In this document: positions 15,163 through 43,805 of the stretch, piece by piece
How the letters are laid out: each line of letters begins with the position of its first letter
Numbering within the stretch: position 1 is the stretch's first letter
Source: Candidatus Avelusimicrobium cornigerorum
GTDB taxonomy: Bacteria > Elusimicrobiota > Elusimicrobia > Elusimicrobiales > Elusimicrobiaceae
Direction: 5' to 3'
Length of the DNA: 64,000 nucleotides
Assembly (NCBI GenBank): GCA_002309715.1
Contig: DBXW01000005.1
Span: forward strand, 321,613 to 385,612
Program-made: the position numbers and the translations under genes
Notes under the pieces: model-generated
Seen by the model: the letters and a program-made list of their open reading frames with translations, nothing else
Told to the model about the DNA's origin: nothing
The model's database searches: none

Positions 15163-15195
15163 AATCCTATGACGAATAAGGAAATGGAGTGCATT

Positions 15196-16952: not shown

Positions 16953-16976
16953 TTTTTTTAAGTAGTTTTTTATTTC

Positions 16977-17008
16977 AAAAGACCTAGGTTTTGGCCTAGG
17001 TCTTTTTT
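16977..17008 (+). terminator. Intrinsic terminator
   Basis: AAAAGACCTAGG / CCTAGGTCTTTT followed by a T-run. Confidence 0.75.
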
Positions 17009-17018
17009 GTGACTTTTG

Positions 17019-17054
17019 TTGCGACATAGTGCTGTCGCAAGGGTTTGTTATCCT
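17019..17054 (+). promoter_or_regulatory. WYL box site 3
   Basis: TTGCGACA-TAGTGC-TGTCGCAA; TATCCT 10 bp after TGTCGC. Confidence 0.82.
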
Positions 17055-17087
17055 ATAAGTAATCTAACGAAAAAGGAGAACAAAATT

Positions 17088-19082: not shown

Positions 19083-19095
19083 AGGAGAAAGAATT

Positions 19096-19881: not shown

Positions 19882-19897
19882 CCATGGGAAGACTATT

Positions 19898-20569: not shown

Positions 20570-20578
20570 GTGTCAGTT

Positions 20579-20753
20579 TGGATCCTGCGAATTTGGTGGT
20601 TAGAGAAAAAGGCCCGAAATGGGCCTTTTTGGCGCCCATCTAAAAGCACTCTATGACCTAAACGGATAAAAACTGCGTAATTTTCCCGACGTGAGTGGGG
20701 AAAACTAGCCAACAAAAAAGGCACCTCCTACAAGATGCCTTTTCAAATGGTGG
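20579..20753. repeat. 175-bp island-end element, copy A, ending in a tRNA-like 3' end (TGGTGG)
   Basis: Same length as 42121-42295 and aligns with it throughout; weaker match to 43562-43735. Confidence 0.85.
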
Positions 20754-20810
20754 GGCAGAAATTTTTGATGGGGTGCGGGTTCTTAGAACGCAGAGTGGTA
20801 ATGCGCAATT

Positions 20811-20966
20811 CCCTGTTTAACAGGCAATTAACAGGCAAAAAACAGGCATTAGCCGGTTTATCCTTTGGATTCCGGAGCCATGCTGATATATGTGCCTTCG
20901 TCTTAGAAATAGTTGCTGAAATATCCGCCAATTCCCTACGCAGAGAAACAGGGAAGGATCAGGGAA
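20811..20966. repeat. 11-bp-period AACAGG repeats
   Basis: TTAACAGGCAA x2 plus AAAACAGGCAT (20817-20849); ACAGGGAA and TCAGGGAA at 20948 and 20959. Confidence 0.7.
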
Positions 20967-20996
20967 ATTACAAAAACAAAGCAAGGAAAAGTTGCT

Positions 20997-22136
20997 CTAT
21001 TGAACTTCCCTTTTCCAATGATCATAAATCGTTTTAATCGCTTGTGTTGATTTATAATCTAATTCATCATTTTTGGTCCAATCACTAGAAATTTTTCTAG
21101 CAGAAATAACTTTTTTCATTTCTTCCACAATTAACTTAGATTTTTTTTCTAAATAACTATGGAATCGAGCCCGTTCTTCGTCAGAACGGAAAATGATAAT
21201 ACGCTGATTTATTGGTTTGGTAAAACATTCTAATGAGCGGCTTATGGATTGAGTTTGAATAAATTTATTAAATAACCATAATAACGAGTTTTGCACGACA
21301 TAAAAATATGTGAACCATTTTTGTTTGTTACTCGATGGGGCGAATTCTTGATGAGGTACTGCAATATGGATACGACCTCCATCTAAACTGACATGATATT
21401 CTGAGTGAATAATGTGATCGTAAACCTTAAAGTCAGCTCTTTCCCAAGTGGCATCTTTGTCAGGAAAAATTTTAGATAAAAAATTCTTATGGTTGGTTTC
21501 GTATCCTTCTAATGTTAGGGAAAATTCTGGCGCAAATTCATAATAATAACGGCCAGTATATTCATCACTTCTCATCCAGTGCTCCGGTGAAGAGAGATAG
21601 TATTCTAATTTCATTAGGGGAGTTGCATCTATACGAAAACGTTTTTTAAATAAATACTCAACCTTGTCATTATCAGCAGTGGAATCTATAGGTGTGTTGG
21701 AGTCTTGAATCCTTGTATAGATATTCCCTTCGTGAGCGCACTTATTTCCGTCGTTGCATTTTTCGCGGAGAACAAAAGGAGTATTGCGCGAATTTTTTAT
21801 GGTTACCACATGTAGGGTTTTAGTGTTTATTGGGAGAGAATCAACAATTGTCTCAGGGCGGAAGTCCCCTACAAACTTCTTGCTACGTAGGAAGTCATTG
21901 AGTTGTTGCGTGTTCAATGCGTTCTCTGTTGTGGAGAGCCCGACAATTTGCGCGTTATCATTGACGCCAAAAATTAAGTAGGCGTCACGGTTTTCTAAAT
22001 TATTTGATAGACATATAATATCGTGAAGTAATTCGGCTTTGTTATTATGCCACGTTTCTTTGAAATCCCAATAACCGCCTTCTCGTTTTTTTGCTATGAG
22101 TTCAAGTACAATTTGTTTTATGTTTGTGTTGGGCAT
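20997..22136 (-). CDS. AlbA_2 (Schlafen-like) domain protein
   Basis: EGGYWDFKE..LLHDIICLSN..YLIFGVND; IYTRIQDSN. Confidence 0.85.
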   Translation of the reverse strand: MPNTNIKQIVLELIAKKREGGYWDFKETWHNNKAELLHDIICLSNNLENRDAYLIFGVNDNAQIVGLSTTENALNTQQLNDFLRSKKFVGDFRPETIVDSLPINTKTLHVVTIKNSRNTPFVLREKCNDGNKCAHEGNIYTRIQDSNTPIDSTADNDKVEYLFKKRFRIDATPLMKLEYYLSSPEHWMRSDEYTGRYYYEFAPEFSLTLEGYETNHKNFLSKIFPDKDATWERADFKVYDHIIHSEYHVSLDGGRIHIAVPHQEFAPSSNKQKWFTYFYVVQNSLLWLFNKFIQTQSISRSLECFTKPINQRIIIFRSDEERARFHSYLEKKSKLIVEEMKKVISARKISSDWTKNDELDYKSTQAIKTIYDHWKREVQ

Positions 22137-22141
22137 TTAAT

Positions 22142-22978
22142 TTATTTCTTTTTAATCTGTCTCTTCGGTGTAAAGTCCGGCAGGGAACTTTTGGATGTAA
22201 CTACCTTGGTTCCGGTGGCTTCTTCAAATTGTAAACGCGCTTGTTTGGCAAGTTTGCCGCCTTTACGCCCGGCTGCTTTATTTTCTTGCACGCCTTCTGC
22301 TTGGTCTTTCTCCGCAATTTGACGGGTGGATAACTCAGCCAAAGCCGTAAAAAGCAGTTCTGCTTCACTCATATGCTCGCGCAGGTTTTCATGCTCTAAC
22401 CCTTTTAACTTTTTGTGTTGGGCAACGGACAAATCACTCCACTCTTGGTGGATGACGTTTGTGAGCATGGCAAAATCGTCCGATTTGGTAACTCCGTGCG
22501 CTTGCCAGTAATCGGTTAGTTTATTGCGGGTTTCTTGGCCCGTCATGCGCTGTTGTATCCATTGTTTGCTACGGCCTTGCTTTTTCCAAGTTTGGCGCGC
22601 GCGATCCAGGGCCTTTGATGGGTCCGCGGTTTCCTGGATGCGCTCATAGCCCACTTTGGCCAGCCACAATTTAAATGGCTCAGCTTTGGGGCTAGGGATG
22701 GACTGGATAAGGCGTAAAAGCTGTTCCGGGGTGGCTACATCCGTCTTATAAAACTTGCCATCTGCCGCCTGTAATTTCAGTTGACTACAATTTGTAGCCA
22801 ACTGACTTCCCTCGGCTTTTAAACGGGTTTTTAAGACGCTCCAATATTTTCTAGGGTTATTGCTTTGAGTAAGCGCATAAATTACATCCACAATAGAAAA
22901 ATACCACGTTTCTGTCTTTTCGTCATAGTGGCGACGGATTTTAAAATCTTCAAAAATAGCAAGTGCTGATTTAGTCAT
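22142..22978 (-). CDS. Bro-N domain protein (antirepressor-like)
   Basis: IRRHYDE..WYFSIVDV..PRKYWSVLKTRL; QSIPSPKAEPFKLWLA. Confidence 0.88.
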   Translation of the reverse strand: MTKSALAIFEDFKIRRHYDEKTETWYFSIVDVIYALTQSNNPRKYWSVLKTRLKAEGSQLATNCSQLKLQAADGKFYKTDVATPEQLLRLIQSIPSPKAEPFKLWLAKVGYERIQETADPSKALDRARQTWKKQGRSKQWIQQRMTGQETRNKLTDYWQAHGVTKSDDFAMLTNVIHQEWSDLSVAQHKKLKGLEHENLREHMSEAELLFTALAELSTRQIAEKDQAEGVQENKAAGRKGGKLAKQARLQFEEATGTKVVTSKSSLPDFTPKRQIKKK

Positions 22979-22988
22979 ATAATCTCCT

Positions 22989-23573
22989 TTAATTCATTCT
23001 CACAAGTTTGGCTAAAATTTGGACGGACGCGTCTGCCGGGAACGGCTCATATTTGGACTTATTGTCCGATACCAACCGGTAGGCGGGGCCGTTTTCGGTG
23101 TTGTACCGCCCAAGGCGCTTAATTTTGAGCCCGTCTTCGCGGCGGCATAATACCACACTTCCAACAGAGGGCAACTGGCTAGTCTTACGGAACATTAGCA
23201 TATCCCCGTCACTAATAGACGGCTCCATAGAATCGCCCTTGGCCTTAATAAAAAACAAATCCTGCGTAGGGGTGGGCAAAAACTTAGTGGGCATATTCAC
23301 ATAGTCCACAATGTTTTCTTCGGCAAAAATGTCCGTATCCCCGCATTGGGCAAATCCGTAAAAGGGGATGGGGGTAAACTCATCCACGGGCCTGTGCGTG
23401 GCAATTAGCGCGTGCCCGTTACGCTCTAAAAAGTTTTCTTTAATCAGTTTGCGGATATGCACGTGCACGGTGCTGACCGATTTTAAGCCAACCACTTTAG
23501 CCAGTTCTGCCAAAGTGATTTGCGGGTTTTGTTGGACGAGTTCTAAAATTTGTTTTTGTTTTGCCGAAAGCAT
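22989..23573 (-). CDS. LexA-like S24 autopeptidase repressor
   Basis: wHTH; KGDSMEP (Ser) and KIKRL (Lys); FAQCG putative Cys-Gly cleavage site; GGAG RBS before ATG 23573. Confidence 0.88.
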   Translation of the reverse strand: MLSAKQKQILELVQQNPQITLAELAKVVGLKSVSTVHVHIRKLIKENFLERNGHALIATHRPVDEFTPIPFYGFAQCGDTDIFAEENIVDYVNMPTKFLPTPTQDLFFIKAKGDSMEPSISDGDMLMFRKTSQLPSVGSVVLCRREDGLKIKRLGRYNTENGPAYRLVSDNKSKYEPFPADASVQILAKLVRMN

Positions 23574-23621
23574 AGTGTTCTCCAATACAAACAGTATAAC
23601 TTTTTTTACGCGTTTAGTCAA

Positions 23622-23672
23622 TTTCTATTAAAAATAGAAAAAGTTGACATAAAATAGAAAATATGTTTTAAT
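23622..23672 (+). promoter_or_regulatory. Operator palindrome and rightward promoter
   Basis: TTTCTATT-AAA-AATAGAAA (23622-40); TTGACA (23644), 17 bp, TTTAAT; extra AATAGAAA half-site in the spacer. Confidence 0.7.
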
Positions 23673-23769
23673 GTAGCGTGGGTTTTGCCGTTATCGGCAA
23701 AAAATAGACTAACTCTAGAGGGATAAAATTATGACGGAAACAAATAAAACATAACACAAGGAGCAGTAT

Positions 23770-24816
23770 ATGAACGAAAACGAAGTAAAAGAAGTAACCG
23801 CGCAAGCGGAGTCCACCATGCCCAAACAGTACGAAGTAGGGTACGGTAAGCCGCCCAAGAAAACGCAATTCAAGCCAGGCCAAAGCGGTAACCCCAAAGG
23901 CCGCACCAAGGGAAGTAAAAACGGTATCTACACCTATATCCAGCGTGAATTAAACTCGTCCATTACGCTTACGGACGGTTCTAAAATTACCAAAGAACAG
24001 GGTTTTGCAAGACAACTAACCAATAAGGCACTTCGTGGCGATATCCAAAGCCAAAAGCTATTATTTAACATCCACCAAAAAGGGCAACGCAAAGATAAGG
24101 CCGAGCTGTTTATGGGCCGCCTGATTAAAGAGGGGTACGTGACGGAAGAAATGATAGATAATTTCTTGTACCACAATAAAATCATATCATCTGCCAAGCC
24201 GTGCGACCCGATGAAGTGCGATTTGAACTTGAATGCTATGTTTAAGCAGATAGGTGGCCGGAAGGCGTTTGGTACCGCACTTATTCTGTCGGACTTATTA
24301 TGCACGTATGCGTGCCTGTTTATTTTGGAAAACCTTTGGGAAGAAATATCCCAAGATTATTCATATTGGCAAGGTGTAGAGGACGCAACCGCTAACCTTG
24401 CCGAGGAACAAAAGGCAACGCTTTATCAAACATTAGCCGCAAACCGCCCCATAGCGCGAATTACAGATGAAGAGTACGAACAAATCCAAAAAGTAATAGA
24501 ACTGGTGCGCGTTGGGTTTATGCGGCAATTTAAAGAATATATGGACCTAATGGCGGAGAAAAGCGAGTATACCACGGTTGAGTGGGAGTTTAAGCGCGGC
24601 GATATGCTAACCCAAGCGCTAAAAAAGACGCACTTTCAATGGGAAATGAAAGAACTAAACGGCAGTTACGAGCATTTCAAAGGAGTATATCAATCGGCTC
24701 AAACCTTACCGAGTGTCGGCCAATGTGCCAAGTATATTGACGAATTGGGCATTAGCGAAGAAGATGCCATGCAAACAATAAGGGAATTATTGATTCCTTT
24801 GTTTGCCAAACGGTAA
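23770..24816 (+). CDS. DUF5681 domain protein
   Basis: YEVGYGKPPKKTQFKPGQSGNPKGR. Confidence 0.85.
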   Translation: MNENEVKEVTAQAESTMPKQYEVGYGKPPKKTQFKPGQSGNPKGRTKGSKNGIYTYIQRELNSSITLTDGSKITKEQGFARQLTNKALRGDIQSQKLLFNIHQKGQRKDKAELFMGRLIKEGYVTEEMIDNFLYHNKIISSAKPCDPMKCDLNLNAMFKQIGGRKAFGTALILSDLLCTYACLFILENLWEEISQDYSYWQGVEDATANLAEEQKATLYQTLAANRPIARITDEEYEQIQKVIELVRVGFMRQFKEYMDLMAEKSEYTTVEWEFKRGDMLTQALKKTHFQWEMKELNGSYEHFKGVYQSAQTLPSVGQCAKYIDELGISEEDAMQTIRELLIPLFAKR

Positions 24817-24857
24817 AAATTAACAACCCGGCAGCAATATTTACTAGTATCGCCGGG

Positions 24858-25883
24858 TTAACTTAATCCTATTTTTTTTATACTGTCTTCATTGAAACCA
24901 GACTCAAGTATGTGTAAATTTCCATTTTTGTTCTGCAAATCAAACAAATCATACCATCCTTGTTCTATATCCATCATTGGTTTAAGGGTGACGATAAAAA
25001 TCTCACATTCTGGATTTAATTGTGTTTGCAATACAAATCGTGTCGCTACATCTGTGAAGGGAATTGAGTAGCCAATAATATATAATTTGGTCGTTTGAGT
25101 TAAATTGTCTTTAAAAACATGCCATTGAAAATCTAGAAGTTTTGTTTTTAATTCAAAATTTTTAAGCATAGTTGGGGGGACTATTAAACATTGGAGTCCT
25201 TGTCGATATTCTGGTAAAGTATGGCTGGAAACGATTCTAACTCCATTTTGAAAATCCGGATCATATAACCAGTTAATGGAACCATGTAATTTATAAAGTT
25301 TGATGGATTTTCTCCAATAATCTCTAGCATCGTTATTGAAGAAGCTTGTGTTACTGTTATCCATAGTTTTTATGGTATAGATTGGATCAAAATCGTGGTT
25401 AGGATAGTTTAAAGATTGGGCAAGAAGATTTTCCAATACTAAATCATAATTAAAAGTGAATATTTCGGCTCGTTCATTATGTAAGCGTTTGGCAAAATTA
25501 TGAAGCCAAGGAACTTGTAATATGCTCTTTTCTTGATTTTTTCTTTCGAAGATTTTCACTATTAAATCTGTGATATACCGATATAGAATTGCTTTTAGGT
25601 GTTGATCTTTGTAATCTTCATAAGCAAAATCCGAGGATAAGAAAGTCATGATATCTTCGAAATTGGATCGATTTTTATCAGGATCTTGTTCCTCGATTGA
25701 TCGAATGTTTCCAATATTAGGTTGAACAATATATTGATCCCATATGTTTTTAATATCATTATCTGAAACAGACGTTATTCCTTCGGAAATTTCTTTTGTC
25801 AATTCATGAAGTAAAGGCATGCTGTTGCCTGCTATTGCTCGTGAGAAACCTGCTCCTAAAATAAAAATTTCTTTTTCTTCCAT
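24858..25883 (-). CDS. SIR2-like protein, putative NADase effector
   Basis: ILGAGFS, TFNYD, KLHGSINW, IIGYS; AT-rich. Confidence 0.88.
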   Translation of the reverse strand: MEEKEIFILGAGFSRAIAGNSMPLLHELTKEISEGITSVSDNDIKNIWDQYIVQPNIGNIRSIEEQDPDKNRSNFEDIMTFLSSDFAYEDYKDQHLKAILYRYITDLIVKIFERKNQEKSILQVPWLHNFAKRLHNERAEIFTFNYDLVLENLLAQSLNYPNHDFDPIYTIKTMDNSNTSFFNNDARDYWRKSIKLYKLHGSINWLYDPDFQNGVRIVSSHTLPEYRQGLQCLIVPPTMLKNFELKTKLLDFQWHVFKDNLTQTTKLYIIGYSIPFTDVATRFVLQTQLNPECEIFIVTLKPMMDIEQGWYDLFDLQNKNGNLHILESGFNEDSIKKIGLS

Positions 25884-26020
25884 ATTCTATTATTTATCCT
25901 CAAAGGTATATTAAACTGTATTACAGATAGAACATCGTGAAGATATTTATCTTCGTTATAATAGTATAACAAAATGAAATTATCATTGATATCATGAGAG
26001 AAAGATTTTCTTAAATTAGC

Positions 26021-26052
26021 TTGACTTATCGCCCGATAGTAAGCGTGAATGT
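26021..26052 (+). promoter_or_regulatory. Duplicated promoter element, copy 1
   Basis: TTGACTTATC-GCCCG-ATAGTAAGCG-TG-AATGT. Confidence 0.65.
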
Positions 26053-26090
26053 AGTACGAAGTAAAAATCGCTTACTTAAGGAGATAAGTT

Positions 26091-26399
26091 ATGAAGAAAA
26101 ACACTAAAAAATCAGCACCCAAAACTACATCTGCAAAACCCGCAGTTCTGCGCGTGGTAAGTCCTATCATGCAAGCAGAAACTGCGCTTGAAAACTTGCC
26201 GGTCCGGCCACGCGATAATCGCTTGCCTGCGCCGGGTAGCATCATCACTAAAACCTACCGCGGTAAAACCATAGAAGTAAAAGTATTGGAAAATGGCTTT
26301 GAATATGAAGGAAAAGTATTCAAAAGCATCTCGCGCGTGGCGATGACGATCGTTAAACGCCAAATCAGCGGTTATGTGTTCTTTGGACTTACCAAATGA
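26091..26399 (+). CDS. DUF2924 domain protein
   Basis: LPAPGSIITKTYRG..EYEGKVFKSISRVA..SGYVFFGL. Confidence 0.88.
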   Translation: MKKNTKKSAPKTTSAKPAVLRVVSPIMQAETALENLPVRPRDNRLPAPGSIITKTYRGKTIEVKVLENGFEYEGKVFKSISRVAMTIVKRQISGYVFFGLTK

Positions 26400-26599
26400 C
26401 ACCGCGCCAACTGCCACCAGTATCGGGGAGATTTGTAAAGGGCCGCTCGGGTAATCCCCTGGGGCGGCCTCCCCGAAATCTTTGTGAAAGAGATATTGTT
26501 TTGTTAGTCGCTAAATTTTTGGAAACTTTAGCCAAGGCCTATTGTAATCAAAGCCGTTCGGTGGAAAAAATCCGTCAGATTAAAGATATTTTGTCATGA
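26396..26599 (+). CDS. Small DUF5681-like protein
   Basis: RFVKGRSGNPLGRP; 4-bp overlaps with both neighbours. Confidence 0.7.
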   Translation: MTPRQLPPVSGRFVKGRSGNPLGRPPRNLCERDIVLLVAKFLETLAKAYCNQSRSVEKIRQIKDILS

Positions 26600-27036
26600 G
26601 AAGAAAATGCTACTTGCCCAAAAGTTATGAAGAATTAAAAGAATTATCTCCCAAAGAACTGCGGTTTTATTGGAATGTTTTCTATCCCAGTCCTTTGCGA
26701 GGTGTTAAGGCCAAGCTACGCCCTTTGTGGTATGCCATTCAATGTGAATTAGGGCGTTGCAAATTGCAAGAAAAATACATCACGCGGCTTGATCGTTATG
26801 CGAGCAATCCCGACAAGTATATTGAGCATGCGCATAAAAAGCGTTATGCGCTGGCCGTGGGCACGATTCTTACAAAAACTTATAAAGGACGGACGTATCA
26901 GGTGACCGTAAAAGGGGAAAACGCCTACGAGTGGGAAGGGAAAACATATCCCAATTTAACAGCACTAGCGGAGAAAATTGTGCGGGCCCACGTTAGCGGC
27001 CCCAAATTTTTTGGGTTAACGCGTAAAAAACTATGA
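26596..27036 (+). CDS. DUF2924 domain protein
   Basis: GTILTKTYKG..EWEGKTYPNLTALA..SGPKFFGL. Confidence 0.88.
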   Translation: MRRKCYLPKSYEELKELSPKELRFYWNVFYPSPLRGVKAKLRPLWYAIQCELGRCKLQEKYITRLDRYASNPDKYIEHAHKKRYALAVGTILTKTYKGRTYQVTVKGENAYEWEGKTYPNLTALAEKIVRAHVSGPKFFGLTRKKL

Positions 27037-27468
27037 ATTCATTGTCTGATTGTATATTGCAGATATAATATCGCATATATCTTGTATAGACAAAGTGATT
27101 TGAAATGTCCGTTTTTTATTTATGGGATTATAATCAGTAAAAGAGATCTTTTCTATATTTTCTTCTCCAATTATATTATCAAAAAAATGTCCATGGGCAA
27201 CGGAATTTCTTAGATGTTTGAACAAAGCTTCACTTGTTCGTTTAGATATTTTTATTTTTTCTGTTATACGAGGTATTTTTATGTTTTTTAATAACTCTGT
27301 TTCTTTTTCTTGGGGCAATATAATAAGTCCTAAAAAAGAATTTATTATTGCTGTAACTTCCCATGGATATCGAGAAGGATTTCGCTTGTTTTGATCAATA
27401 TAGAGATCTAAATTTTCTTTTGTTCTTTTTATAAAATCTTTTATCCCATCTTGTTTGCTGTATAACAC
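27031..27468 (-). CDS. HEPN family nuclease (pEK499_p136-like)
   Basis: YPWEVTAIINSFLGLIILP; RNSVAH (RxxxxH); GTG start. Confidence 0.8.
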   Translation of the reverse strand: MLYSKQDGIKDFIKRTKENLDLYIDQNKRNPSRYPWEVTAIINSFLGLIILPQEKETELLKNIKIPRITEKIKISKRTSEALFKHLRNSVAHGHFFDNIIGEENIEKISFTDYNPINKKRTFQITLSIQDICDIISAIYNQTMNS

Positions 27469-27500
27469 TTGACTTATCTCCCTATAGTAAGCGGTAATGT
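27469..27500 (+). promoter_or_regulatory. Duplicated promoter element, copy 2
   Basis: TTGACTTATC-TCCCT-ATAGTAAGCG-GT-AATGT; 28/32 identical to copy 1. Confidence 0.65.
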
Positions 27501-27520
27501 GTATAGGAGAATTATACTAA

Positions 27521-29149: not shown

Positions 29150-29255
29150 GAGAACTCTGCAGGGAAAACTGTGGTAAAAGATAGGACATATTTATTAAAA
29201 TAACATAAAGCCCTATTTTGGCACCGAAATTGGGCCGATAGGGATAGGAATAGTT

Positions 29256-29894
29256 ATGCAATTACAAAATAAAAGCCCATACAGTGCTTCTATGACAGGT
29301 TGTGGTTTCATGTTAGAAGAAATGAACCGTATCCTGCCGTTACTTATGGACCCAGCTTCAGACACCTTGTTGAAAAAGGAAGTTGTTGAAAATTCCTACT
29401 TAATGATCAATACAGAAAACACCAGAAAAAGAGCGGTGGTCGAACTTGTAAAAAGATATCAGTCTGTACCACAAGAATTTTGGAAAGAATATTTGTCTTT
29501 TTCCAAAGAGGCTCAGTGTGTAGCTATGTATTTTGTAAATTTAAAGTGTTATCGTCTCTTTTTTGATTTGCATTTAAATCTTGTTCTTAAGAAATGGCAT
29601 TCTATTCGCCAAACATTGACTAGAACGGATGTATTGATGGAAATAAATGCAATTGCTACCCAAGATGATTTCGTAGATAGTTGGAGTGATAATACGAAAA
29701 TCAAAGTGGCAAGTGCCTTCCTGTCTTTTCTACGTAAAGTTAAATTTTTGGAACCAAATGGGGAACAACTTAAGCCGATTTCTTTGACTGATGAAGAATT
29801 TGCATTTTATTTGAAAATACGAGAAAATTGGTTCTTGGAAGCTTGTCTCCTGCAGCCGTATGAAATTGAGCGTATTACAAAGGTGCTTGTATGA
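29256..29894 (+). CDS. brxA: BREX BrxA (DUF1819)
   Basis: YSASMTG.. family pattern; first gene of the BREX operon. Confidence 0.8.
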   Translation: MQLQNKSPYSASMTGCGFMLEEMNRILPLLMDPASDTLLKKEVVENSYLMINTENTRKRAVVELVKRYQSVPQEFWKEYLSFSKEAQCVAMYFVNLKCYRLFFDLHLNLVLKKWHSIRQTLTRTDVLMEINAIATQDDFVDSWSDNTKIKVASAFLSFLRKVKFLEPNGEQLKPISLTDEEFAFYLKIRENWFLEACLLQPYEIERITKVLV

Positions 29895-30499: not shown

Positions 30500-30504
30500 A
30501 TCAT

Positions 30505-33999: not shown

Positions 34000-34003
34000 A
34001 ATT

Positions 34004-37000: not shown

Positions 37001-37525
37001 GCCTTCTCTGACAATGCCACTGAATGCTTTAAGCGTTTTCTTAAAGTGGCGTTTGGAGCCGAAAACCTAACGGGAAATCTTAATTTTATAGAATCTGTTC
37101 TCGGTAAAGATATAGAAACCTATTTTGTGAAGGACTTTTGGAAAGATCACTTAAAACGTTACCAAAATAGGCCCATTTACTGGTTATTCCGTTCCGATAA
37201 GGGGGCTTTCCAATGTTTAGTGTATATGCACCGCATGAACCCATATACAGCGGAGCAAGTGCGTACGCGCTATTTATTGCCACATATAGAATATTTAACT
37301 ACCCGCCTGGCAGAATTAGAAAGCCGTGCCGCTGAATTGAACAGCCGTGAACGCCGCTTAAAAACTAAGTTTGAAAAAGATTTAGTGGAATGCCAAGAGT
37401 ACCACGATCGCTTACATCGAGTGGCCGATAGACAGATTGCATTTGATTTGGATGACGGCGTAGTGGTAAATTATGCCAAATTTGAAGATGTACTTGCTAA
37501 AATAAAAAAAGCAGAGAAGAAATAA
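34004..37525 (+). CDS. pglX: BREX-1 adenine methyltransferase PglX (BrxX)
   Basis: AYTWFNRL, IPAATQIFTP, DLACGSGH, NPPY, RPIYW, DLDDGVVVNY. Confidence 0.95.
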   Translation: METSQIKKFAQQARTILKQGIQNKISSLGFDASGHVPADKMPIKGQDHVVFMGQVIEDVSFYDKWQSLYTHVTEKGIAQVCEEAAYTWFNRLVAIRILMKNNLIEPVLAYPNPSLRIPRIVADARRGIYPQMTAYDRKQLNQLLDDDTKTTEQFGLLIVNYCRNNPVLAACFGDINDYTELLLPINILAANGFVDLLNNTTFITDEDYKQSELIGWLYQFYISEKKDEVFASKQKRKPEDIPAATQIFTPNWIVKYMVQNTLGRIYLDNNPNAQSIKSQMKYLVEPGAPSPEELIFHYTDVHQLTIADLACGSGHILNEAFDLLLSIYIEEGYNRRQAIKEIFEYNLLGIDLDTRAKQLAMFALLLKACQKDKSFLDAQTLPRVLDMHVADLVIELNAKANLSTILNEFFAGANETTLKETMVALKLLEQGKNLGSIMRFELSDSTRAAIAMRYQEWKGKIVNREIKILLSAFEVILALTDKYATLVMNPPYMHSSDMNVDLSKYVKENYSDGKADLFSVFMLLSNNLLARKGKYGMISMQGWMFLSSFEKLRSSLLTQQHIDNLLHLGPRTFDELSGEVVQNVAFVVSKNKYSASGIYYRLVDGKNCSDKERMFLNAENLKGVYYPNVNQKNFEKIPGCPLGYWVKSTVWQMYDTNPTIGEIAQPKVGMQTSNNDKYLRLWFEITFNEFNGTSTGLKWIKYLKGGTFRRWYGNMEHLLWYNKTPSFVLQQDNARVLELDFLEKRKCTWSDITSGKNAFRFAPADTFYDISGHCYFPSKDNQYWTLGAVNTPVFHLLKKVFNSTYHCQCGDVAKYVLPTLKEDEKQIISDLVKQNIFVSRIDWDAHETSWDFQENELLRLSKEHPAYSLEKLTEEYQKYWADKFLTLHKNEEELNRQFIDIYGLQDELTPDVPLDEVTILQQGEITIENNELKWNKDEIVKQLISYAVGCMMGRYRLDKPGLHIAHPNPIDEEISTYSYNGQSFSIDKDAILPLMTRDSAFSDNATECFKRFLKVAFGAENLTGNLNFIESVLGKDIETYFVKDFWKDHLKRYQNRPIYWLFRSDKGAFQCLVYMHRMNPYTAEQVRTRYLLPHIEYLTTRLAELESRAAELNSRERRLKTKFEKDLVECQEYHDRLHRVADRQIAFDLDDGVVVNYAKFEDVLAKIKKAEKK

Positions 37526-37528
37526 ACC

Positions 37529-40054
37529 ATGAGTATTCAAACGAATATATATAACTATTTTGACAGGAATCCCGAATTAAAGGTTCTTTTTGTATTTGAC
37601 CCTATGATCTGTGCTGAATTGACAGAGGCCGAATGGCAAAATGGCTATAAAGCTATTTTTTTTGACGGCGCGTGGTTTAGGACCAAATATGCATTGGAAC
37701 ATGATTGGAAGGATCTAAAAGTAATATTATTGTTTGATTTTATTCGTCCCAGCAATTTGAGTAAGTTCCCGCTTGCCGGTGAGTTGGCTGCTAATATGGA
37801 GTATAAAGCGGAGGATTACGAGGCTTTCCTGCAACAATATAGACTAAGTGCCGAAAAATTCGGTTCCTATGTCCGGCGACATATTGGCGAACTACAATTA
37901 TCCAAAATAGACAAAATTTTGCACGATTATTATACTTCAGATGCCTTTAGCATAGATGTGGCTAATAGAGGGTTTATTTGCGCCTATATGGGGGAGAGCA
38001 AGTTGCTTGAATGGAATGAGATTATTATCCGTCTTATGATGCTTGCCCTACCGGAAGATAAAAGGAAAGAAACCAGTTTTTATGTGGCTTTGTGTAAAAA
38101 CCAGGATGCCAAAGATGCCCTACAAGAACAACTAAAGAGAATTTTTAATCTTTCGTATGAGGAAAATTCCCTTTCTAAAATGAAGAAAATAGTGGAGTGC
38201 TTTAAGTATAATCTGATAACCTCCAATTTGGTGGCTGTTGCCTCTGACAACTACAAAGATTATAAGATTACTAATTCCGTACAATTGGAATCTATGCAAA
38301 AGTTGCTTTCGACCGGGTTAAATCAACTGCCGGCCAAACGAGGAAGATTTTTGCAGGTTTTGGATGTTGTGGGTGCAGATATACATGTGGAAGAGATTGT
38401 TCGTGCCTATGGAATAGAAGCAGATTTCTTTTATGTGCCCGATTCTCTTTGTATTCAAATTGTTCAAAAGGCACTGGAAGATATTTCTGTGACGGATTCT
38501 ATGCTTTTACAAGACAAAATGCGAAACTTGCTACTACAACAGCAAGAATCATCGCTTGTGCCGGCTATAGAATATGTGATTAGACTGATAAAATATTATG
38601 ATAAACGCAAACAGATAACATCTTTTGTGAAATCCACCCCACAGGAGTACATTAAACTTTATCAAGAAGAATATTATTTGTTAGATATGTACTACCGGCA
38701 GAGTTTGGAATATTATTTTCAAATAAATGTAGAAAATGAGTCTTTTAATGAAAGTTTATCTTCCGCTAAAAGAGATTTAGATGCAGATTATGCCTATTAT
38801 TGTCAGGAATTAAACAGAGAGTGGCTAAGATGTTGGAGTGAGAAAGGGAACACTTATAAATCATTGGGAATAGTACCTAAACAACAGGATATTTATACCC
38901 AAGAACGCAATCCGGGGGTAAAACAAGTTTTTATTATAAGTGATGCATTCCGTTATGAACTAGCGGTAGAGTTGTTAAATCGTGAGCTATCCCAAGAAAA
39001 AAATATAGCAGAATTACATTATGCCGTTGCAATGTTGCCCACTGAAACGAAATATACTAAGCCGGCACTTTTGCCTCATCAAACCCTTGAACTACAGGGG
39101 GCAGATATGGTGGTAGATGGGCAAGTTCTCAATACAGTAACCAAACGGATGCAGCATCTAAACAAATATGTTAACGGGGCTGTATGTGTTGATTACAACG
39201 ACTGGGATCAAAAAACCAGAGAAGAAAAGCGAGAAATTTGTAAGAATCCTCTTGTATATATTTTTCACAATACTCTCGATAAGGGTGGTCATGATGCCAC
39301 TGCTAGAGAATTAACGAGGACTTGCCAAGAAGCTATTGCGCAACTTAGAGACCTGATTACAAAATTACATTCCACTATGCATGTGACGGATGTGGTATTA
39401 ACCGCCGACCATGGCTTTCTTTATAATGATATCGTGTTTGCCGACAAAGACAAACAAATTGTAACTGAAAATGTATTGGAACAGAAAACCCGTTATTATT
39501 TGACAACGTCTAATGTTCCTATTATGAATGTAGTAAAATTCCCATTAAACGAAGTATCAGCCATGAAAGGGGATTGTTATGTAGCGGTTCCTTTTGGAAC
39601 TAATCGTTTTAATGCTCCCGGTGGTGGGTATGATTTTGCTCATGGAGGGGTTTCGTTGCAAGAGATGATTATCCCGGTTCTTCACAGCAAGCATAAACGA
39701 GTAGAGACCAAAGAAAAAGTAGGAGTGACATTGATTTCTACGGATTTGAAGATGGTTTCTAGTAGTTTGAAATTTCAAATTATTCAAAGTGATGTGGTAT
39801 CTATGGAAAAAACACCACGTCATATTGTATGTGCTGTTTATGTTAATGACAAACCTGTCACAACATTAAAAAAACTATTCCTAAATAGTACGGATTCAAC
39901 GCCTGCTAGTCGTATTTTGGAAGTGGAGCTTGTTCTCAATACATCTGTTAATACTAGTATCATGGAGCTGCGTATTTATGATGAAAATGATATGCTTAAT
40001 CCTCTGATCAAACAGAATGTAAAGAATAACACTTTGATAGAGAGAGATTTTTAG
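37529..40054 (+). CDS. pglZ: BREX PglZ (BrxZ) alkaline-phosphatase-fold protein
   Basis: IISDAFRYE, LPTET, TADHGF, FAHGG. Confidence 0.93.
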   Translation: MSIQTNIYNYFDRNPELKVLFVFDPMICAELTEAEWQNGYKAIFFDGAWFRTKYALEHDWKDLKVILLFDFIRPSNLSKFPLAGELAANMEYKAEDYEAFLQQYRLSAEKFGSYVRRHIGELQLSKIDKILHDYYTSDAFSIDVANRGFICAYMGESKLLEWNEIIIRLMMLALPEDKRKETSFYVALCKNQDAKDALQEQLKRIFNLSYEENSLSKMKKIVECFKYNLITSNLVAVASDNYKDYKITNSVQLESMQKLLSTGLNQLPAKRGRFLQVLDVVGADIHVEEIVRAYGIEADFFYVPDSLCIQIVQKALEDISVTDSMLLQDKMRNLLLQQQESSLVPAIEYVIRLIKYYDKRKQITSFVKSTPQEYIKLYQEEYYLLDMYYRQSLEYYFQINVENESFNESLSSAKRDLDADYAYYCQELNREWLRCWSEKGNTYKSLGIVPKQQDIYTQERNPGVKQVFIISDAFRYELAVELLNRELSQEKNIAELHYAVAMLPTETKYTKPALLPHQTLELQGADMVVDGQVLNTVTKRMQHLNKYVNGAVCVDYNDWDQKTREEKREICKNPLVYIFHNTLDKGGHDATARELTRTCQEAIAQLRDLITKLHSTMHVTDVVLTADHGFLYNDIVFADKDKQIVTENVLEQKTRYYLTTSNVPIMNVVKFPLNEVSAMKGDCYVAVPFGTNRFNAPGGGYDFAHGGVSLQEMIIPVLHSKHKRVETKEKVGVTLISTDLKMVSSSLKFQIIQSDVVSMEKTPRHIVCAVYVNDKPVTTLKKLFLNSTDSTPASRILEVELVLNTSVNTSIMELRIYDENDMLNPLIKQNVKNNTLIERDF

Positions 40055-40062
40055 GAGATTAT

Positions 40063-42117
40063 ATGCCATTACAAGAAAAAATAATGAAGTGTTTTGATGG
40101 AAAAGTGGTTCGCAAAGATTTGGCTTTTTTAATAAAAGGTGGACTGCCTGTCCCTACGTTTGTATTGGAGTATTTATTAAGTCAGTACTGCGCCAGTGAC
40201 GATGAACAGGTTATTAAAGAGGGAGTGGAACAGGTAAAACAGATAATACAGGAAAATTATGTCCATAGAGCCGATGCTGAGGCGGTCAAAGGTAAGATCC
40301 ATGATTGTGGTAAATATAAAATTATTGATAAAGTAAATGTTTTTTTAAATGAAAAATCAGACGAATATCAAGCATCTTTTGCTAACTTAGGCTTATCAGG
40401 AGTCCCAATAGGGGCAAAATACGTGCAAGAAAATCCAAAATTACTTTCTGGAAATGGAGTATGGTGTATTGTTTCATTAGGATACATAAGTGGGGAAGAT
40501 GTACGTGTTCGTTGGGATATTCAGACATTAAAGCCAATTCAAATTTCTAATATCGATTTGGAATATTATATTGCTCAAAGAAAGAATTTTACTACCGAAG
40601 AATGGATTGATTTTCTAATCCATACAATGGGATTAAATCCAGAAGAATTAAATAGAAGGGAAAAGTTTATTACGTTAGCTCGTCTTTTACCTTTTGTAGA
40701 AAATAACTTTAATTTTGTAGAACTTGGGCCTAAGGGAACCGGAAAATCTCATGTTTTCCAAGATTTGTCACCGAATGGGGTGCTAGTTAGTGGTGGAGAT
40801 GTGACGAGTGCTCGATTGTTCGTTAAAATGAGCGGTAATCGCGAAATCCTTGGGTTAGTTGGGTATTGGGATCTTGTGGCTTGGGACGAATTTGAACAAC
40901 AAAAAGGGCGTTCCATAGATGCGGTTCTTATAGATACAATGCAAAACTATCTTGCCAATAAGGCATTTAACAGAGGAAAGTCGACGCATGAAGCGAGTGC
41001 TTCAATGGTTTTTGTCGGTAATACGAAGCATACTGTTCCTTACATGTTAAAAAATACTCATTTGTTTGAATCTATTCCCGTTGCATTTATTAAAGGAGCT
41101 TTCTTAGATCGTATTCATTTGTATAATCCCGGTTGGGAAATAAGAATGCTGAAAAAAGGAAGTTTTTCTCATGGGTATGGTCTAATTACAGATTATATTG
41201 CTGCAGTACTTCATGAATTTAGAAATCAAGATTTAACCAATTGGCTCCAAAAATATGCTAAATTTGACTCGTCGCTATCGGAAAGAGATCATTTAGCAAT
41301 CCGTAAAACATTTTCTGGAATGATAAAATTATTGTATCCCGATGGTAATATTACTGATGAAGAGGCCTATGAATTGGTAGATTTTGCCGCGGAAGGACGT
41401 AAGCGTGTAAAAGAGCAACTTTATATTATAGATGGGACATTTAAATTGGAACCGGCAGTATTCCAATATATTAATTTGAAAAGCGGAGAGAAAACAGAAA
41501 TAGAAACATTAGAATGTGTTAATTTTGAGCATTCTACCCCGTTGGTATTGCCTTCGAATCAAAAGTCCGAAATAGGACAAAAAGAGCAAGAATCTAAAGT
41601 TCCTAATGCGGAAAAGAAAAAAATAGTATTGCAAGAAAAACGATTACCTGTGCGTATGGGGCAAACAGGCATTTCGTACGAGACACTATTTGCTGATTAT
41701 TTAAAAGGAGCCAACAAAATCGTTATAGAAGACCCCTATATTCGAACATTTTGGCAGATAAAAAATTTAGTAGAATTTTTCTCTATGCTTGAAAAGACAC
41801 GCCCGGTCGAGGGGCTTGACGTCCATTTAATTACCACGAAAGATGAGACTGAAGAGAAGATAAATAGATTGCTGGAGGATTTGGAAGCAATAAAATCAGA
41901 TGTGAGTAATGTAGGTATAAATTTTACTTATGAATTCAATGAATTCCACGATAGATGTATTAAAACAGATACTGGATGGATTATTTCATTAGGAAGAGGA
42001 TTAGATATTTTCGAGCCCTGTGATAAATTCTCTTTAAGTGCTTTGGATCAAAAACGTCGTAAATGTAAGGATTTTAGTGTCATTTACTCTCAAGGAGACC
42101 CTGACAAATTGCCCTAA
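40063..42117 (+). CDS. brxL: BrxL with a C-terminal PLD/HKD-like (MIT_C-type) domain instead of Lon protease
   Basis: VVRKDL, ELGPKGTGKS; C-terminal EDPYIR..FHDR..TDTGW..GRGLD. Confidence 0.9.
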   Translation: MPLQEKIMKCFDGKVVRKDLAFLIKGGLPVPTFVLEYLLSQYCASDDEQVIKEGVEQVKQIIQENYVHRADAEAVKGKIHDCGKYKIIDKVNVFLNEKSDEYQASFANLGLSGVPIGAKYVQENPKLLSGNGVWCIVSLGYISGEDVRVRWDIQTLKPIQISNIDLEYYIAQRKNFTTEEWIDFLIHTMGLNPEELNRREKFITLARLLPFVENNFNFVELGPKGTGKSHVFQDLSPNGVLVSGGDVTSARLFVKMSGNREILGLVGYWDLVAWDEFEQQKGRSIDAVLIDTMQNYLANKAFNRGKSTHEASASMVFVGNTKHTVPYMLKNTHLFESIPVAFIKGAFLDRIHLYNPGWEIRMLKKGSFSHGYGLITDYIAAVLHEFRNQDLTNWLQKYAKFDSSLSERDHLAIRKTFSGMIKLLYPDGNITDEEAYELVDFAAEGRKRVKEQLYIIDGTFKLEPAVFQYINLKSGEKTEIETLECVNFEHSTPLVLPSNQKSEIGQKEQESKVPNAEKKKIVLQEKRLPVRMGQTGISYETLFADYLKGANKIVIEDPYIRTFWQIKNLVEFFSMLEKTRPVEGLDVHLITTKDETEEKINRLLEDLEAIKSDVSNVGINFTYEFNEFHDRCIKTDTGWIISLGRGLDIFEPCDKFSLSALDQKRRKCKDFSVIYSQGDPDKLP

Positions 42118-42120
42118 CTT

Positions 42121-42295
42121 TGGATCTTGCGAAATTCGCAGTTAGAGAAAAAGGCCCATTTCGGGCCTTTTTGACGCGTATCTAAAAGCACTCTATGACC
42201 TAAACGGATAAAAATCACGTAATTTTCCCGACGAGCGTGGGAGAAATAGGCCAACAAAAAAGGCATCTCTTACAAGATGCCTTTTCAAATGGTGG
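42121..42295. repeat. 175-bp island-end element, copy B
   Basis: Direct repeat of 20579-20753. Confidence 0.85.
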
Positions 42296-42324
42296 TCCGC
42301 GCGAGACTTGAACCTGTGACCTTC
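42290..42324 (-). repeat. tRNA 3'-end relic, direct repeat 1
   Basis: Minus strand reads GAAGGTCACAGGTTCAAGTCTCGCGCGGACCACCA; 26/28 identical to 43499-43526. Confidence 0.75.
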
Positions 42325-42504
42325 TGGATTTTTCTCTCGTGTAAGAGGTGTTGTGGGGGCAAATCCGCCCAATGTGGGCTTTATAGAGTGGGGTGGGTAT
42401 AGGTACCCGCAGAAAAAATCACAGAGACAAATGTTAAGAGTAATCCTTCAATTCCCCGAAGGAGGATAACTCCCATGTTAAGATTAAATGTTAAGCAACT
42501 TTTT

Positions 42505-42564
42505 CCGTTATCGGCAAAATATAATTATTTATTTATAAAATATAACTTGATTTATTGCCGATAA
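42505..42564. promoter_or_regulatory. Inverted TTATCGGCAA / TTGCCGATAA boxes upstream of HTH-Fic
   Basis: 42508-17 and 42555-64 are reverse complements. Confidence 0.55.
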
Positions 42565-42595
42565 TGAGTTATACTAGTAGTAACAGGAGGGGGTT

Positions 42596-43486
42596 ATGGA
42601 ATATATCTCGGCAGTACAAGCGGCTAAAAAGTGGAAAATTTCGGAGCGGAGCGTGCGTAATTATTGTGCGCATGGCCGTATTGCGGGGGCTTTTTTAACC
42701 GGCAAGACATGGAACATTCCAGCAGAGGCCTCTAAACCTATGCGTAAGCCCAAACAAAGCAAGCACGCTAATACCTTACTTAATATATTAAAAGCCGAGC
42801 AATCTTCCAAACAACATGGCGGTATTTATCATAAGATACAAATTGACCTTACTTATAATTCCAACCATATAGAAGGCAGTCAACTCACCCATGACCAAAC
42901 TCGCTATATTTTTGAAACAAACACGATTGGTGTGGAAGATAATACCGTAAAGGTAGATGATATCGTAGAAACCGCAAACCACTTTAAATGTATTGATATG
43001 ATTATTGATAACGCCAACTATAAACCCAGCGAACATTTCCTAAAAGAATTACATGGTGTGCTTAAAAACGGGACGTCGGATAGCCGCAAGGCCTGGTTTG
43101 CGGTGGGGGATTATAAACGCAAACCCAATGAGGTGGGGGGACATCACACCACGCGCCCGGAACACGTAGCGGCCAAAATGAAAGAACTGATTACAAAGTA
43201 TAACCGCAAAAACAAACACACCTTTGAAGAACTATTGGATTTTCATTACCAATTTGAAGCCATTCACCCATTTCAAGACGGGAATGGACGTATTGGGCGG
43301 CTGATACTGTTTAAGGAGTGTTTGCGTAATAATATCGTTCCGTTTATCATTACGGACAAGATAAAGATGTTCTATTATAAAGGACTTAATGAGTGGCCGA
43401 AAAATCACGAACGCTTAACTGATACTTGTTTATCAGCACAAGACCAAATGAAAGCGGTGCTAGATTATTTTAAGATTACCTATTAA
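42596..43486 (+). CDS. HTH-Fic protein
   Basis: N-terminal HTH; SNHIEG inhibitory motif; HPFQDGNGRIGR. Confidence 0.93.
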   Translation: MEYISAVQAAKKWKISERSVRNYCAHGRIAGAFLTGKTWNIPAEASKPMRKPKQSKHANTLLNILKAEQSSKQHGGIYHKIQIDLTYNSNHIEGSQLTHDQTRYIFETNTIGVEDNTVKVDDIVETANHFKCIDMIIDNANYKPSEHFLKELHGVLKNGTSDSRKAWFAVGDYKRKPNEVGGHHTTRPEHVAAKMKELITKYNRKNKHTFEELLDFHYQFEAIHPFQDGNGRIGRLILFKECLRNNIVPFIITDKIKMFYYKGLNEWPKNHERLTDTCLSAQDQMKAVLDYFKITY

Positions 43487-43494
43487 AACAGTTT

Positions 43495-43526
43495 GATACC
43501 GCGCAGGACTTGAACCTGTGACCTTC
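43495..43526 (-). repeat. tRNA 3'-end relic, direct repeat 2
   Basis: Minus strand GAAGGTCACAGGTTCAAGTCCTGCGCGGTATC. Confidence 0.7.
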
Positions 43527-43561
43527 CACGTATTAGTAAAGAAAAAAGCAAAGCCCAAAAG

Positions 43562-43732
43562 TGGATCTTGCGATTTTTGCCGTTAGAGAACTAGGGCCGA
43601 ATTATCCGTATTTTTTGCAAGGGATAAAGCACTCTATGACGGGGAAGGATAAGAAATCAGAACTTTTCTCGTCGGTAAAAGATAAACTTAAATACAAAAA
43701 AATCCCCGTCTCTACGACGGGGAAAATCAATT
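43562..43732. repeat. Diverged end element, copy C, abutting the tRNA-Val 3' end
   Basis: Shares TGGATCTTGCGA, GTTAGAGAA and AAAGCACTCTATGAC with copies A/B; terminator hairpin near 43703-43724. Confidence 0.7.
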
Positions 43733-43805
43733 TGGACCGGAAGGGACTCGAACCCCTGACCTCCTGCGTGTAAAGCAGGCGCTCTACCAACTAAGCTACC
43801 GATCC
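43733..43805 (-). tRNA. tRNA-Val(TAC), CCA not encoded
   Basis: GGATCGG acceptor, D-arm TAGCTTAGTTGGTAGAGC, CCTGC-TTTACAC-GCAGG anticodon arm, GTTCGAG T-loop. Confidence 0.96.

Follow-up and report, generated by a model that had tools for sequence, protein, structure and literature searches.

A probable layered array of islands at tRNA-Val in Candidatus Avelusimicrobium cornigerorum and a conserved 175-bp module that probably forms the recombinase-proximal island end

Why do three related elements of about 175 bp occur in tandem at a single locus, each next to what looks like the 3' end of a different transfer RNA (tRNA)? This question is raised by a 64,000-nt stretch of the genome of Candidatus Avelusimicrobium cornigerorum (contig DBXW01000005.1, positions 321,613 to 385,612; hereafter the window), in which a preliminary description had noted the elements A, B and C and ascribed them to successive integrations of related DUF2924/serine-recombinase elements. 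We compared the source genome (G000, 1.38 Mb in 12 contigs) with the genomes of relatives (G0xx) and with individually fetched loci (Lxxx). The relatives found via the recombinase are metagenome-assembled genomes of gut and rumen Elusimicrobiaceae (Elusimicrobium and Avelusimicrobium). Judged from these sequence comparisons, the locus is probably a layered island array composed of an S operon with A, an intact island 1 with B, and a 1.4-kb Fic remnant with C. The 175-bp element itself is likely to be the recombinase-proximal terminal module of an integrative island family in gut and rumen Elusimicrobiaceae.

A repeat search and exact matching recovered all three homologous copies at their described places together with every string quoted for them. 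A and B share 86% identity over 177 nt, and C is 72-80% identical to A/B over sub-blocks. The 15-mer AAAGCACTCTATGAC has three exact occurrences, where shuffled sequence would give 0.09. In the complete genome, only these three full copies were retrieved by a profile search (E = 1.6e-48, 2.8e-44 and 4.6e-34); the element is no dispersed repeat, and all copies sit at one locus. The minus-strand strings next to them are ..CTGCCCCACCA (20758-20748), ..GCGCGGACCACCA (42302-42290) and ..CCGGTCCA (at 43733), the last being the end of tRNA-Val(tac), the sole tRNA of the window. A, B and C follow each other head to tail with their own cargo blocks at this one tRNA, and similar arrays were found in G017:C9, G021:C2 and L091. 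On its left side, the array reaches beyond the interval considered in the preliminary description, to approximately 15100. In the related genome G020 (L058) the genes up to 14979 lie only 1.5 kb from tRNA-Val, and therefore about 28.7 kb (15100-43732) are accessory in the source genome.

Comparison with empty tRNA-Val loci, which had been proposed as a check of the array, distinguishes island from host DNA. Behind the tRNA of three empty sites (G021:C1, G030:C7 and G010:C3), CCACCA and one terminator hairpin give way to unrelated sequence, leaving the rest of the element as island-borne. At G020:C3 and G026:C5, a homology search (the sequences themselves were not read) detected no element or recombinase homology behind the tRNA. 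The tRNA side of the occupied site G034:C10 consists of the tRNA, CCACCA, the hairpin, the rest of the element and ~14 kb with recombinase and DUF2924 genes. On its far side, the island left end is followed by CCACCA, the hairpin and a native flank that matches the gene after the empty site of G021:C1, so the full element is present on the tRNA side only. The distal copy in G022 and G011 is likewise reduced to the hairpin. From the empty and occupied sites it follows that element positions ~47-175 travel with the island and that the first ~45 nt mimic the target. Since the element can start 12-18 bp past the recombinase gene and distal copies retain the hairpin only, it represents the recombinase-side terminus of the island.

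The distribution of the element across related genomes follows the recombinase. A DNA query consisting of B and the adjoining tRNA fragment frag2 matched in 33 of the 36 same-genus genomes, in many of them only over the hairpin/tRNA part, and had no match in 24 genomes of other families. Forty loci were found via the recombinase protein and classified by identity to the recombinase of the window. Loci with recombinases at least 67% identical have the element and then a convergent tRNA-Val(tac) downstream, and those in the 54-59% class have the element and tRNA-Pro(cgg). In three alphaproteobacterial loci (41-43%), tRNA-Gln(ttg) occurs ~225 bp downstream (two loci) or 0.9 kb downstream (the third), with no element homology. 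Within intact islands the element lies 0.01-2 kb downstream of the DUF2924/recombinase pair, a distance that grows to 13 kb in the source genome. In the recombinase tree, 13 loci with a visible target, the source genome among them, form a Val clade distinct from a Pro clade of 7 such loci, and the element type follows the recombinase clade and the island, not the host. Pairs of elements flank islands in G033, G021:C2 and G010:C6.

The position of the junction could be narrowed down from the left ends of the islands. In the non-coding left end of island 1, GCCTGTT occurs three times as a direct repeat spaced ~11 bp apart, together with the palindrome CCTGTTTAACAGG (20811-20826), and the left ends of G000, G022, G025, G011 and G036, all of them non-coding, are 74-91% identical and share both the repeats and the palindrome. 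In these five genomes and in G034 the left-end homology stops at ...TT(C/G)CTGCC, followed by CC and a host-specific trailer. This trailer is the full element A in the source genome, an unrelated terminator hairpin in G022, G011 and G025, and CC-AAATT with a hairpin in G036. The distal junction in the window accordingly reads ...TTCTGCC/CC/ACCA plus element A, and the tRNA-side sequence reads ...CCGGT-CC-A. The left-end boundary and the tRNA-side sequence together define the common core CC(A) at tRNA positions 71-73. We infer that crossover takes place at CC, positions 71-72 of the tRNA, which fits the 2-nt crossover of serine recombinases. Pro-type islands have the same design (...GTGCC/CC-GACCA). 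The junction thus has a short core, though the element and host sides share up to 45 nt (CCACCA and terminator). Dyad symmetry around CC, as assessed by eye, was limited to GGT-CC-ACC in the tRNA, with nothing convincing in the island site.

These alignments revise the earlier idea that the strings beside A and B are relics of different tRNA targets. The five-genome left-end homology identifies CTGCCCCACCA as the island terminus CTGCC joined to CC-ACCA, and a tRNA-Pro origin of this string was dropped after the left-end alignment. For its part, GCGCGGACCACCA lies in a 3' part of tRNA-Val(tac) that has been displaced and whose variant is intact in other species. This part, frag2, reads ...CTTACACG...CCAGAAGGTCACAGGTTCAAGTC..GCGCGGA-CC-ACCA. 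The same fragment ends GTCCTGTCCGAA-CCACCA in G025, and the intact tRNA-Val(tac) genes of G011, G015, G010 and G034 end GTCCTGTCCGGT-CCACCA. Together, the G025 fragment and the intact genes of the relatives identify frag2 as the tRNA-Val(tac) 3' part from the anticodon loop onward, in the variant with an ACAGG/CCTGT T-stem and CCA; by this alignment it is the putative tRNA arm that island 1 joined. A second fragment, frag1, which was not in the preliminary description, forms a 28-nt direct repeat with frag2 (2 mismatches) and keeps the anticodon-loop sequence CTTTAC with a 4-nt insert. As sources of the two fragments, tRNA-Val(cac) and tRNA-Val(gac) were rejected: both share the T-arm, but the tRNA-Val(tac) variant fits best. 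Across the genus, tRNA-Val(tac) occurs with two T-stem variants (GGGG/CCCT and ACAGG/CCTGT), with or without encoded CCA, and with a nearly uniform 5' half, in which the D-loop differs by a single C/T change. Trailer type goes with the island, which would be expected of islands that replace all sequence after CC.

The element was described in the sense of the tRNA using 52 distinct full copies from a profile search of the fetched loci. All 52 start at the last bases of a tRNA, with CC-ACCA or CC-AAATT after tRNA-Val(tac) and CC-GACCA after tRNA-Pro(cgg), and every copy ends in ...GCAGGATCC(A); both the CC-ACCA and the GGATCC borders are sharp throughout. The general order is CC-A(CCA), hairpin 2 with a U-run, the invariant CG-N-CG, TTTTTAT(C), GGTC(T/A)TAGAG, ~18 variable nt, and then hairpin 1, TTCTCTAAC and GCAGGATCC. 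In element A, for instance, CC-ACCA is followed by terminator hairpin 2, the conserved blocks, hairpin 1 and ...GCAGGATCCA. Hairpin 2 has a folding energy of -16 to -17 kcal/mol in A, B and C, precedes the U-run, and covaries among the 52 copies, with 15-19 compensatory double changes in several pairs. Hairpin 1, flanked by A- and T-runs, is a predicted bidirectional terminator that is well formed in A/B and degenerate in C-type copies. Two hairpins are found at the same place in the alphaproteobacterial relatives without sequence homology, and such a pair would make sense as terminators of the convergent tRNA and recombinase/cargo transcripts.

Apart from the hairpins, the element contains the invariant inner blocks CGNCG, TTTTTAT, GGTCTTAGAG, TTCTCTAAC and GCAGGATCC, which we would guess to be protein-binding or insulating DNA. 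The complementary segments TAGAG/CTCTA are paired in 97% of cells, have no double changes, and vary only to G-U in the tRNA sense, a pattern that hints at a stem in RNA or in a cruciform. Another helix at alignment columns 50-56/67-73 was discarded, being paired in only 61%. At both gathering and permissive thresholds of Rfam 15 only the tRNA passes, the other best hits scoring 20-25 bits against thresholds of ~50, and a sigma-70-type scan of 41900-43900 found no site in or adjoining B and C and fewer sites overall than in shuffles. Element C encodes no CCA, and C-type modules sit right behind recombinases in L091. Any plausible attachment (att) site of a serine recombinase would leave approximately 130 of the 175 bp uncovered.

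The relative age of the layers can be read from their borders. The left end of island 1 adjoins the full element A and not a plain terminator, which implies that island 1 inserted where S and A already stood. We infer an order, from oldest to newest, of S-A, island 1 with B, and Fic with C, the last having entered between the tRNA body and frag2. The same contact of island 1 with the full A would mean that the tRNA/module junction of an earlier island can serve as a target.

The Fic unit appears to have entered by a different route. Its 1.15-kb segment is bracketed by frag1 and frag2, and repeats that extend from the anticodon loop to the 3' end mark an insertion inside the tRNA rather than at its end. 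In G036 (L057) the Fic-frag1-C block occupies the cargo slot right behind the recombinase. L091 contains the module of C, 27 bp and frag1 twice, and the Fic-frag1-C block there adjoins a second C-type module. The interval 42346-43765 may be what is left of another unit, from which the tRNA would have received its present 3' part along with C. A third junction class, located 18 nt from the tRNA-Val 3' end, was observed in L057 (G036; 9836-10046) and L056 (G031:C9; 5963-6158). It is preceded by a conserved end of ~55 nt (CAAAAACCGCGAGCCCGGCCTGCAG...), and the insert measures only ~200 bp; by their structure, these inserts are putative miniature or decayed elements of another family.

The history of S-A involves the tRNA-Pro locus as well. 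The S block is missing in G020; G008 and G031 have the same block, with the element, beside tRNA-Pro(cgg). The S-A junction has its orthologue in the S-element-tRNA-Pro(cgg) arrangement of G008 and G031:C12, and A is of Val type over the two thirds nearest the tRNA. Outside the window, the source genome has a tRNA-Pro pair (G000:C3:310326-310640) that occupies the other strand 31.7 kb upstream of A; it lacks an element and is followed by a long inverted repeat, AAAACACTTTAGTTC...GAACTAAAGTGTTTT. Relative to tRNA-Val, this pair has opposite orientations in G022 and in the source genome. The overall picture resembles that of a rearrangement with these tRNA ends as its anchor points. A single inversion that moved S-A from tRNA-Pro to tRNA-Val was considered and rejected: the predicted reciprocal junction after tRNA-Pro(cgg) is absent.

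These observations can be combined into a model of how the array was built. An island of this family would comprise a left end with GCCTGTT repeats, variable genes, the short DUF2924-C gene, the DUF2924 gene, the recombinase, a cargo slot and the 175-bp module. For crossover, the recombinase would use the closing CC of the acceptor stem of tRNA-Val(tac), and its sister clade would use tRNA-Pro(cgg). The incoming module would bring CC-A(CCA) and a rho-independent terminator, providing the tRNA with a new discriminator, CCA and terminator, and the original trailer would end up beside ...CTGCC at the island's far end. Because the new tRNA/module junction would resemble the original target, a further island could insert and displace the older one outward. 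The Fic/C unit would have entered deeper in the tRNA, at the anticodon loop, leaving two displaced tRNA 3' parts. The remainder of the module would supply a second, bidirectional terminator for the recombinase/cargo operon along with the invariant blocks. For the excised circle, the model predicts the joint ...TTTCTGCC-CC-ACCATTTGAAAAGG of element B.

The proposals of the preliminary description are in part retained by this model. A tandem array formed by successive insertions at tRNA-Val is borne out by A, B and C with their cargo blocks and by the empty sites of related genomes. DUF2924/serine-recombinase elements remain as the main builders; however, the recombinase is kept in only one of the three units, and the Fic unit is bounded by repeats of the anticodon-loop type. 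The suggestion that the 175 bp may be the recombination or accessory site is supported as regards recombination, the putative site lying in the first 2-8 nt of the element. A further extension, which we put forward as a doubtful possibility, is that the module acts as a portable landing pad. Each island would bring a copy of the right arm of its target (CC-ACCA and terminator), so that the tRNA junction stays competent while the far junction comes to look like the site of the island itself. Open-ended head-to-tail stacking and possibly factor-independent excision would then become feasible, under the control of the two DUF2924 proteins bound to the inner blocks and the GCCTGTT repeats.

Several observations weigh against the terminal-module reading and the layered array. 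Full elements occur at tRNA-Pro(cgg) without a nearby recombinase in G008 and G031:C12, where they would be island-borne only by the logic of remnants. The arrangement in G026:C13 (L080, 5732-9428) is reversed, with tRNA-Pro(cgg) followed by the hairpin only and the full element at the distal position. L080 displays the hairpin, ~3.5 kb and then an island left end joined to the full element, and its two 47-nt copies of CGACCA and hairpin are identical; it may represent a recent insertion of a module-less island or a deletion derivative. The Fic unit does not fit acceptor-end insertion and points to a different insertion route. S-A is syntenic with a tRNA-Pro locus elsewhere, and its arrival at tRNA-Val needs an extra rearrangement. 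Finally, for canonical large serine recombinases an attP of ~50 bp suffices and has few bases in common with attB; the 45-nt shared segment and the conserved 175-bp module are unexplained by this canonical model.

Some of these observations would be accommodated if the element were the native 3' flank of tRNA-Pro and tRNA-Val, perhaps a small RNA gene or regulatory region, into which islands were swapped by homologous recombination. The matches to B and frag2 in 33 of 36 genomes, many of them partial, and the recombinase-free full copies in G008 and G031:C12 agree with such a flank. So do the variation of the TAGAG/CTCTA helix only by G-U in the tRNA sense and the S-A junction, whose orthology to a tRNA-Pro flank, with A two thirds Val-like, suggests recombination inside the element. 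However, several tRNA-Val sites as well as the tRNA-Pro sites of G000 and G022 have only a plain terminator. Moreover, the element follows the recombinase wherever one is present, even at 12 bp, and its type tracks the recombinase clade and island instead of the host; the lack of an Rfam match and of a promoter-like site in the scanned stretch also speaks against such a flank. We therefore regard a native flank as unlikely.

Two other explanations invoke mobility of a different kind. It is improbable that the element is a small non-autonomous unit, i.e. a miniature att-bearing cassette comparable to a cis-mobilisable element, moved in trans by the recombinase, with its copies as independent insertions. 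The compact gene-free module of C, 27 bp and frag1 recurs and is duplicated in L091, the borders are sharp in all 52 copies, and G036 and G031:C9 hold the ~200-bp tRNA inserts with their own junction type. Against this, all copies in the genomes examined are located at tRNA-Val or tRNA-Pro ends, the cargo operons next to A and B run right up to the element, with stop codons 1-9 nt short of the border, and an isolated element between two junctions was not seen. The other scheme, in which the repeats are simple att duplications left by the tyrosine integrase of a classical tRNA island with the serine recombinase as a mere passenger, is highly improbable. Such islands do leave repeats from the anticodon loop to the 3' end, as in frag1/frag2, and the 45 nt of shared CCACCA and hairpin are long for a serine recombinase. 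Nevertheless, no tyrosine recombinase gene is present among the open reading frames (ORFs) of at least 70 aa scanned in 17000-47000, the arrangement of the recombinase, the two genes that partner it and the tRNA is fixed across phyla, and the recombinase clade predicts the tRNA target.

The gene content differs between the layers (Table 1). The S operon encodes an unknown protein, a PAD-type deiminase, a small HNH protein, an IetA-like double AAA ATPase and two more unknown proteins. Its stop codon lies 8 nt short of A, and neither a recombinase nor a left end is left. Island 1 is the only one of the three units with intact mobility genes. It starts with AlbA_2/Schlafen (PADLOC PDC-S50), Bro-N, a LexA-like S24 repressor, DUF5681 and SIR2, continues through the mobility core of short DUF2924-C, DUF2924, HEPN and the large serine recombinase, and ends with a type 1 bacteriophage exclusion (BREX) operon and element B. 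No phage structural genes occur in island 1; the DUF5681 gene is kept. The recombinase matches PF00239 (1.1e-38) and PF07508 (2.6e-20) in Pfam and a PHROG integrase family (2.3e-97). No Pfam zinc-ribbon model matched its C-terminus at E <= 0.001, and its length leaves room for one.

The cargo slot is the interval from the recombinase stop codon to the GGATCC border. In the window it holds the 12.9-kb BREX operon, in which brxA, brxB, brxC, pglX, pglZ and brxL occur in order with all six Pfam families. The brxL stop codon is 1 nt from B, and the GC content is 0.35-0.38 versus 0.40-0.44 in the surroundings. The slot is nearly empty in L105 and G015, where the element follows 12-18 bp past the recombinase; it contains an antisense gene of ~0.9 kb in many loci and Fic in G036. 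Single AT-rich antisense genes were observed in the slots of L090 (7589-8443, minus strand; DUF5677) and L116 (7597-8415, minus strand; 272 aa, no family). Both are absent from PADLOC and are candidates for one-gene defence cargo. The arrangement would also allow cargo exchange by homologous recombination between the recombinase gene and the module. Within the mobility core, HEPN (27031-27468) and SIR2 (24858-25883), both on the minus strand, are antisense single genes wedged between the others. They represent further small cargo slots, because DUF2924 adjoins the recombinase without HEPN in many relatives.

In the 40 loci searched by tblastn, the full DUF2924 gene always lies directly upstream of the recombinase, Alphaproteobacteria included. 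The short ORF preceding it, which could be taken for a truncated DUF2924 gene, is not a pseudogene; it is a short paralogue that has only the C-terminal half of DUF2924 and precedes the full gene by ~200 bp in nearly all Elusimicrobia loci examined. A profile search of DUF2924 against PDB sequences gave no match, its AlphaFold2 model (predicted local distance difference test score, pLDDT, 74) had no Foldseek match with E <= 0.001, and the searchable literature contains only passing mentions, in three papers.

Table 1. Features of the island array at tRNA-Val(tac) (window coordinates; layer and target assignments are putative)
Feature	Coordinates	Strand	Basis
S cargo operon, putatively the oldest layer	15169..20569	+	Pfam and PADLOC matches; missing in G020
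Element A, putative terminal module of the oldest layer	20577..20753	-	repeats, profile search, hairpin -16.9 kcal/mol
Putative crossover dinucleotide CC, distal attL-like junction	20752..20753	-	left-end homology boundaries
Non-coding left end of island 1	20754..20996	-	74-91% identity to left ends of G022, G025, G011, G036
Island 1, 21.5 kb	20754..42295	+	Pfam, PHROGs, PADLOC; boundaries from junction comparison
Short DUF2924-C-like gene	26091..26399	+	tblastn in relatives
Full DUF2924 gene	26596..27036	+	tblastn in relatives
Large serine recombinase, 542 aa	27521..29149	+	Resolvase and Recombinase domains
Cargo slot with BREX type 1	29256..42117	+	Pfam
Element B, putative recombinase-proximal module of island 1, P' side of att	42119..42295	-	hairpin 2 -17.3, hairpin 1 -15.6 kcal/mol
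frag2, decayed tRNA-Val(tac) 3' part	42296..42345	-	comparison with G025, G011, G015, G010
Fic/DOC segment with flanks, bounded by frag2 and frag1	42346..43496	+	Pfam, PADLOC
Fic/DOC gene, PDC-S04/SoFic-like	42596..43486	+	Pfam, PADLOC
frag1, second decayed tRNA-Val 3' part	43497..43544	-	repeat and alignment
Element C, divergent putative terminal module adjoining the live tRNA	43562..43736	-	starts (T)CCAAATTG; hairpin 1 degenerate
Resident tRNA-Val(tac), putative integration target, 73 nt, CCA not encoded	43733..43805	-	ARAGORN; Rfam 72 bits

Tandem accretion at tRNA genes is well known; the recombinase family that would have built the present array is thinly covered in the searchable literature. 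What is added here is a base-level description of the junction at the acceptor-end CC, two recombinase clades with two targets in one genus, the 175-bp module, and evidence that the junction of an earlier island is reused as a target. The resulting anatomy, with the target dinucleotide, left end, terminal module and cargo slot placed at base level, applies to a widespread and barely studied way of building defence islands. It places the use of tRNA ends, generally ascribed to tyrosine integrases, with serine recombinases that have DUF2924 partners. The cargo slot, with BREX here and single genes in relatives, is a good place to look for new defence genes, and the predicted attP and attB are short and defined.

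Among known systems, reports on streptococcal integrative and conjugative elements, integrative mobilizable elements and cis-mobilizable elements describe tandem tRNA accretion in which older elements are pushed outward (PMC5704250, PMC7563491). Such arrays resemble the present one in insertion at the tRNA 3' part, displacement of older elements by newcomers, partial tRNA copies along with decayed elements, and adaptive or defensive cargo. In contrast to them, the array described here involves a large serine recombinase with two DUF2924-type partners, a junction at the last CC of the acceptor stem with almost no tRNA sequence duplicated, and a conserved 175-bp module in each island instead of just a partial tRNA. 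Among Prochlorococcus tycheposons, 27 of 937 elements carry a large serine recombinase and not a tyrosine recombinase (bioRxiv 10.1101/2020.12.28.424599). The tycheposon hallmark, a deep-branching tyrosine recombinase, is not found in the ORFs scanned in 17000-47000, and the island is thus similar in mode without being a member.

The combination of DUF2924 with a large serine recombinase is mentioned in passing for the edge of Wolbachia prophage WO (PMC11376236, PMC10299305), and phage AcaML1, which has the pair too, is given in a listing with 'srrA' as its integration site and with direct repeats of 10 bp (PMC3826726). Their likeness to island 1 is one of gene adjacency. Both are complete phages, whereas the island has no structural genes, and no 175-bp module is described for them.

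The island also shares features with Bxb1, phiC31 and the CcrAB system of the staphylococcal cassette chromosome mec (SCCmec), namely the Resolvase and Recombinase domains, a recombinase gene at the element edge, and junctions that are compatible with a 2-nt crossover and need no long perfect direct repeats. SCCmec at the orfX 3' end, like the island here, targets and restores the 3' end of a conserved gene. In contrast to these systems, the islands of Elusimicrobiaceae have a tRNA end as the target, up to 45 nt common to both sides, constant DUF2924 partners, and a junction that is seemingly reusable. Among serine integrases, which are common tools of genome engineering, such reuse of a junction would, if true, be a novelty.

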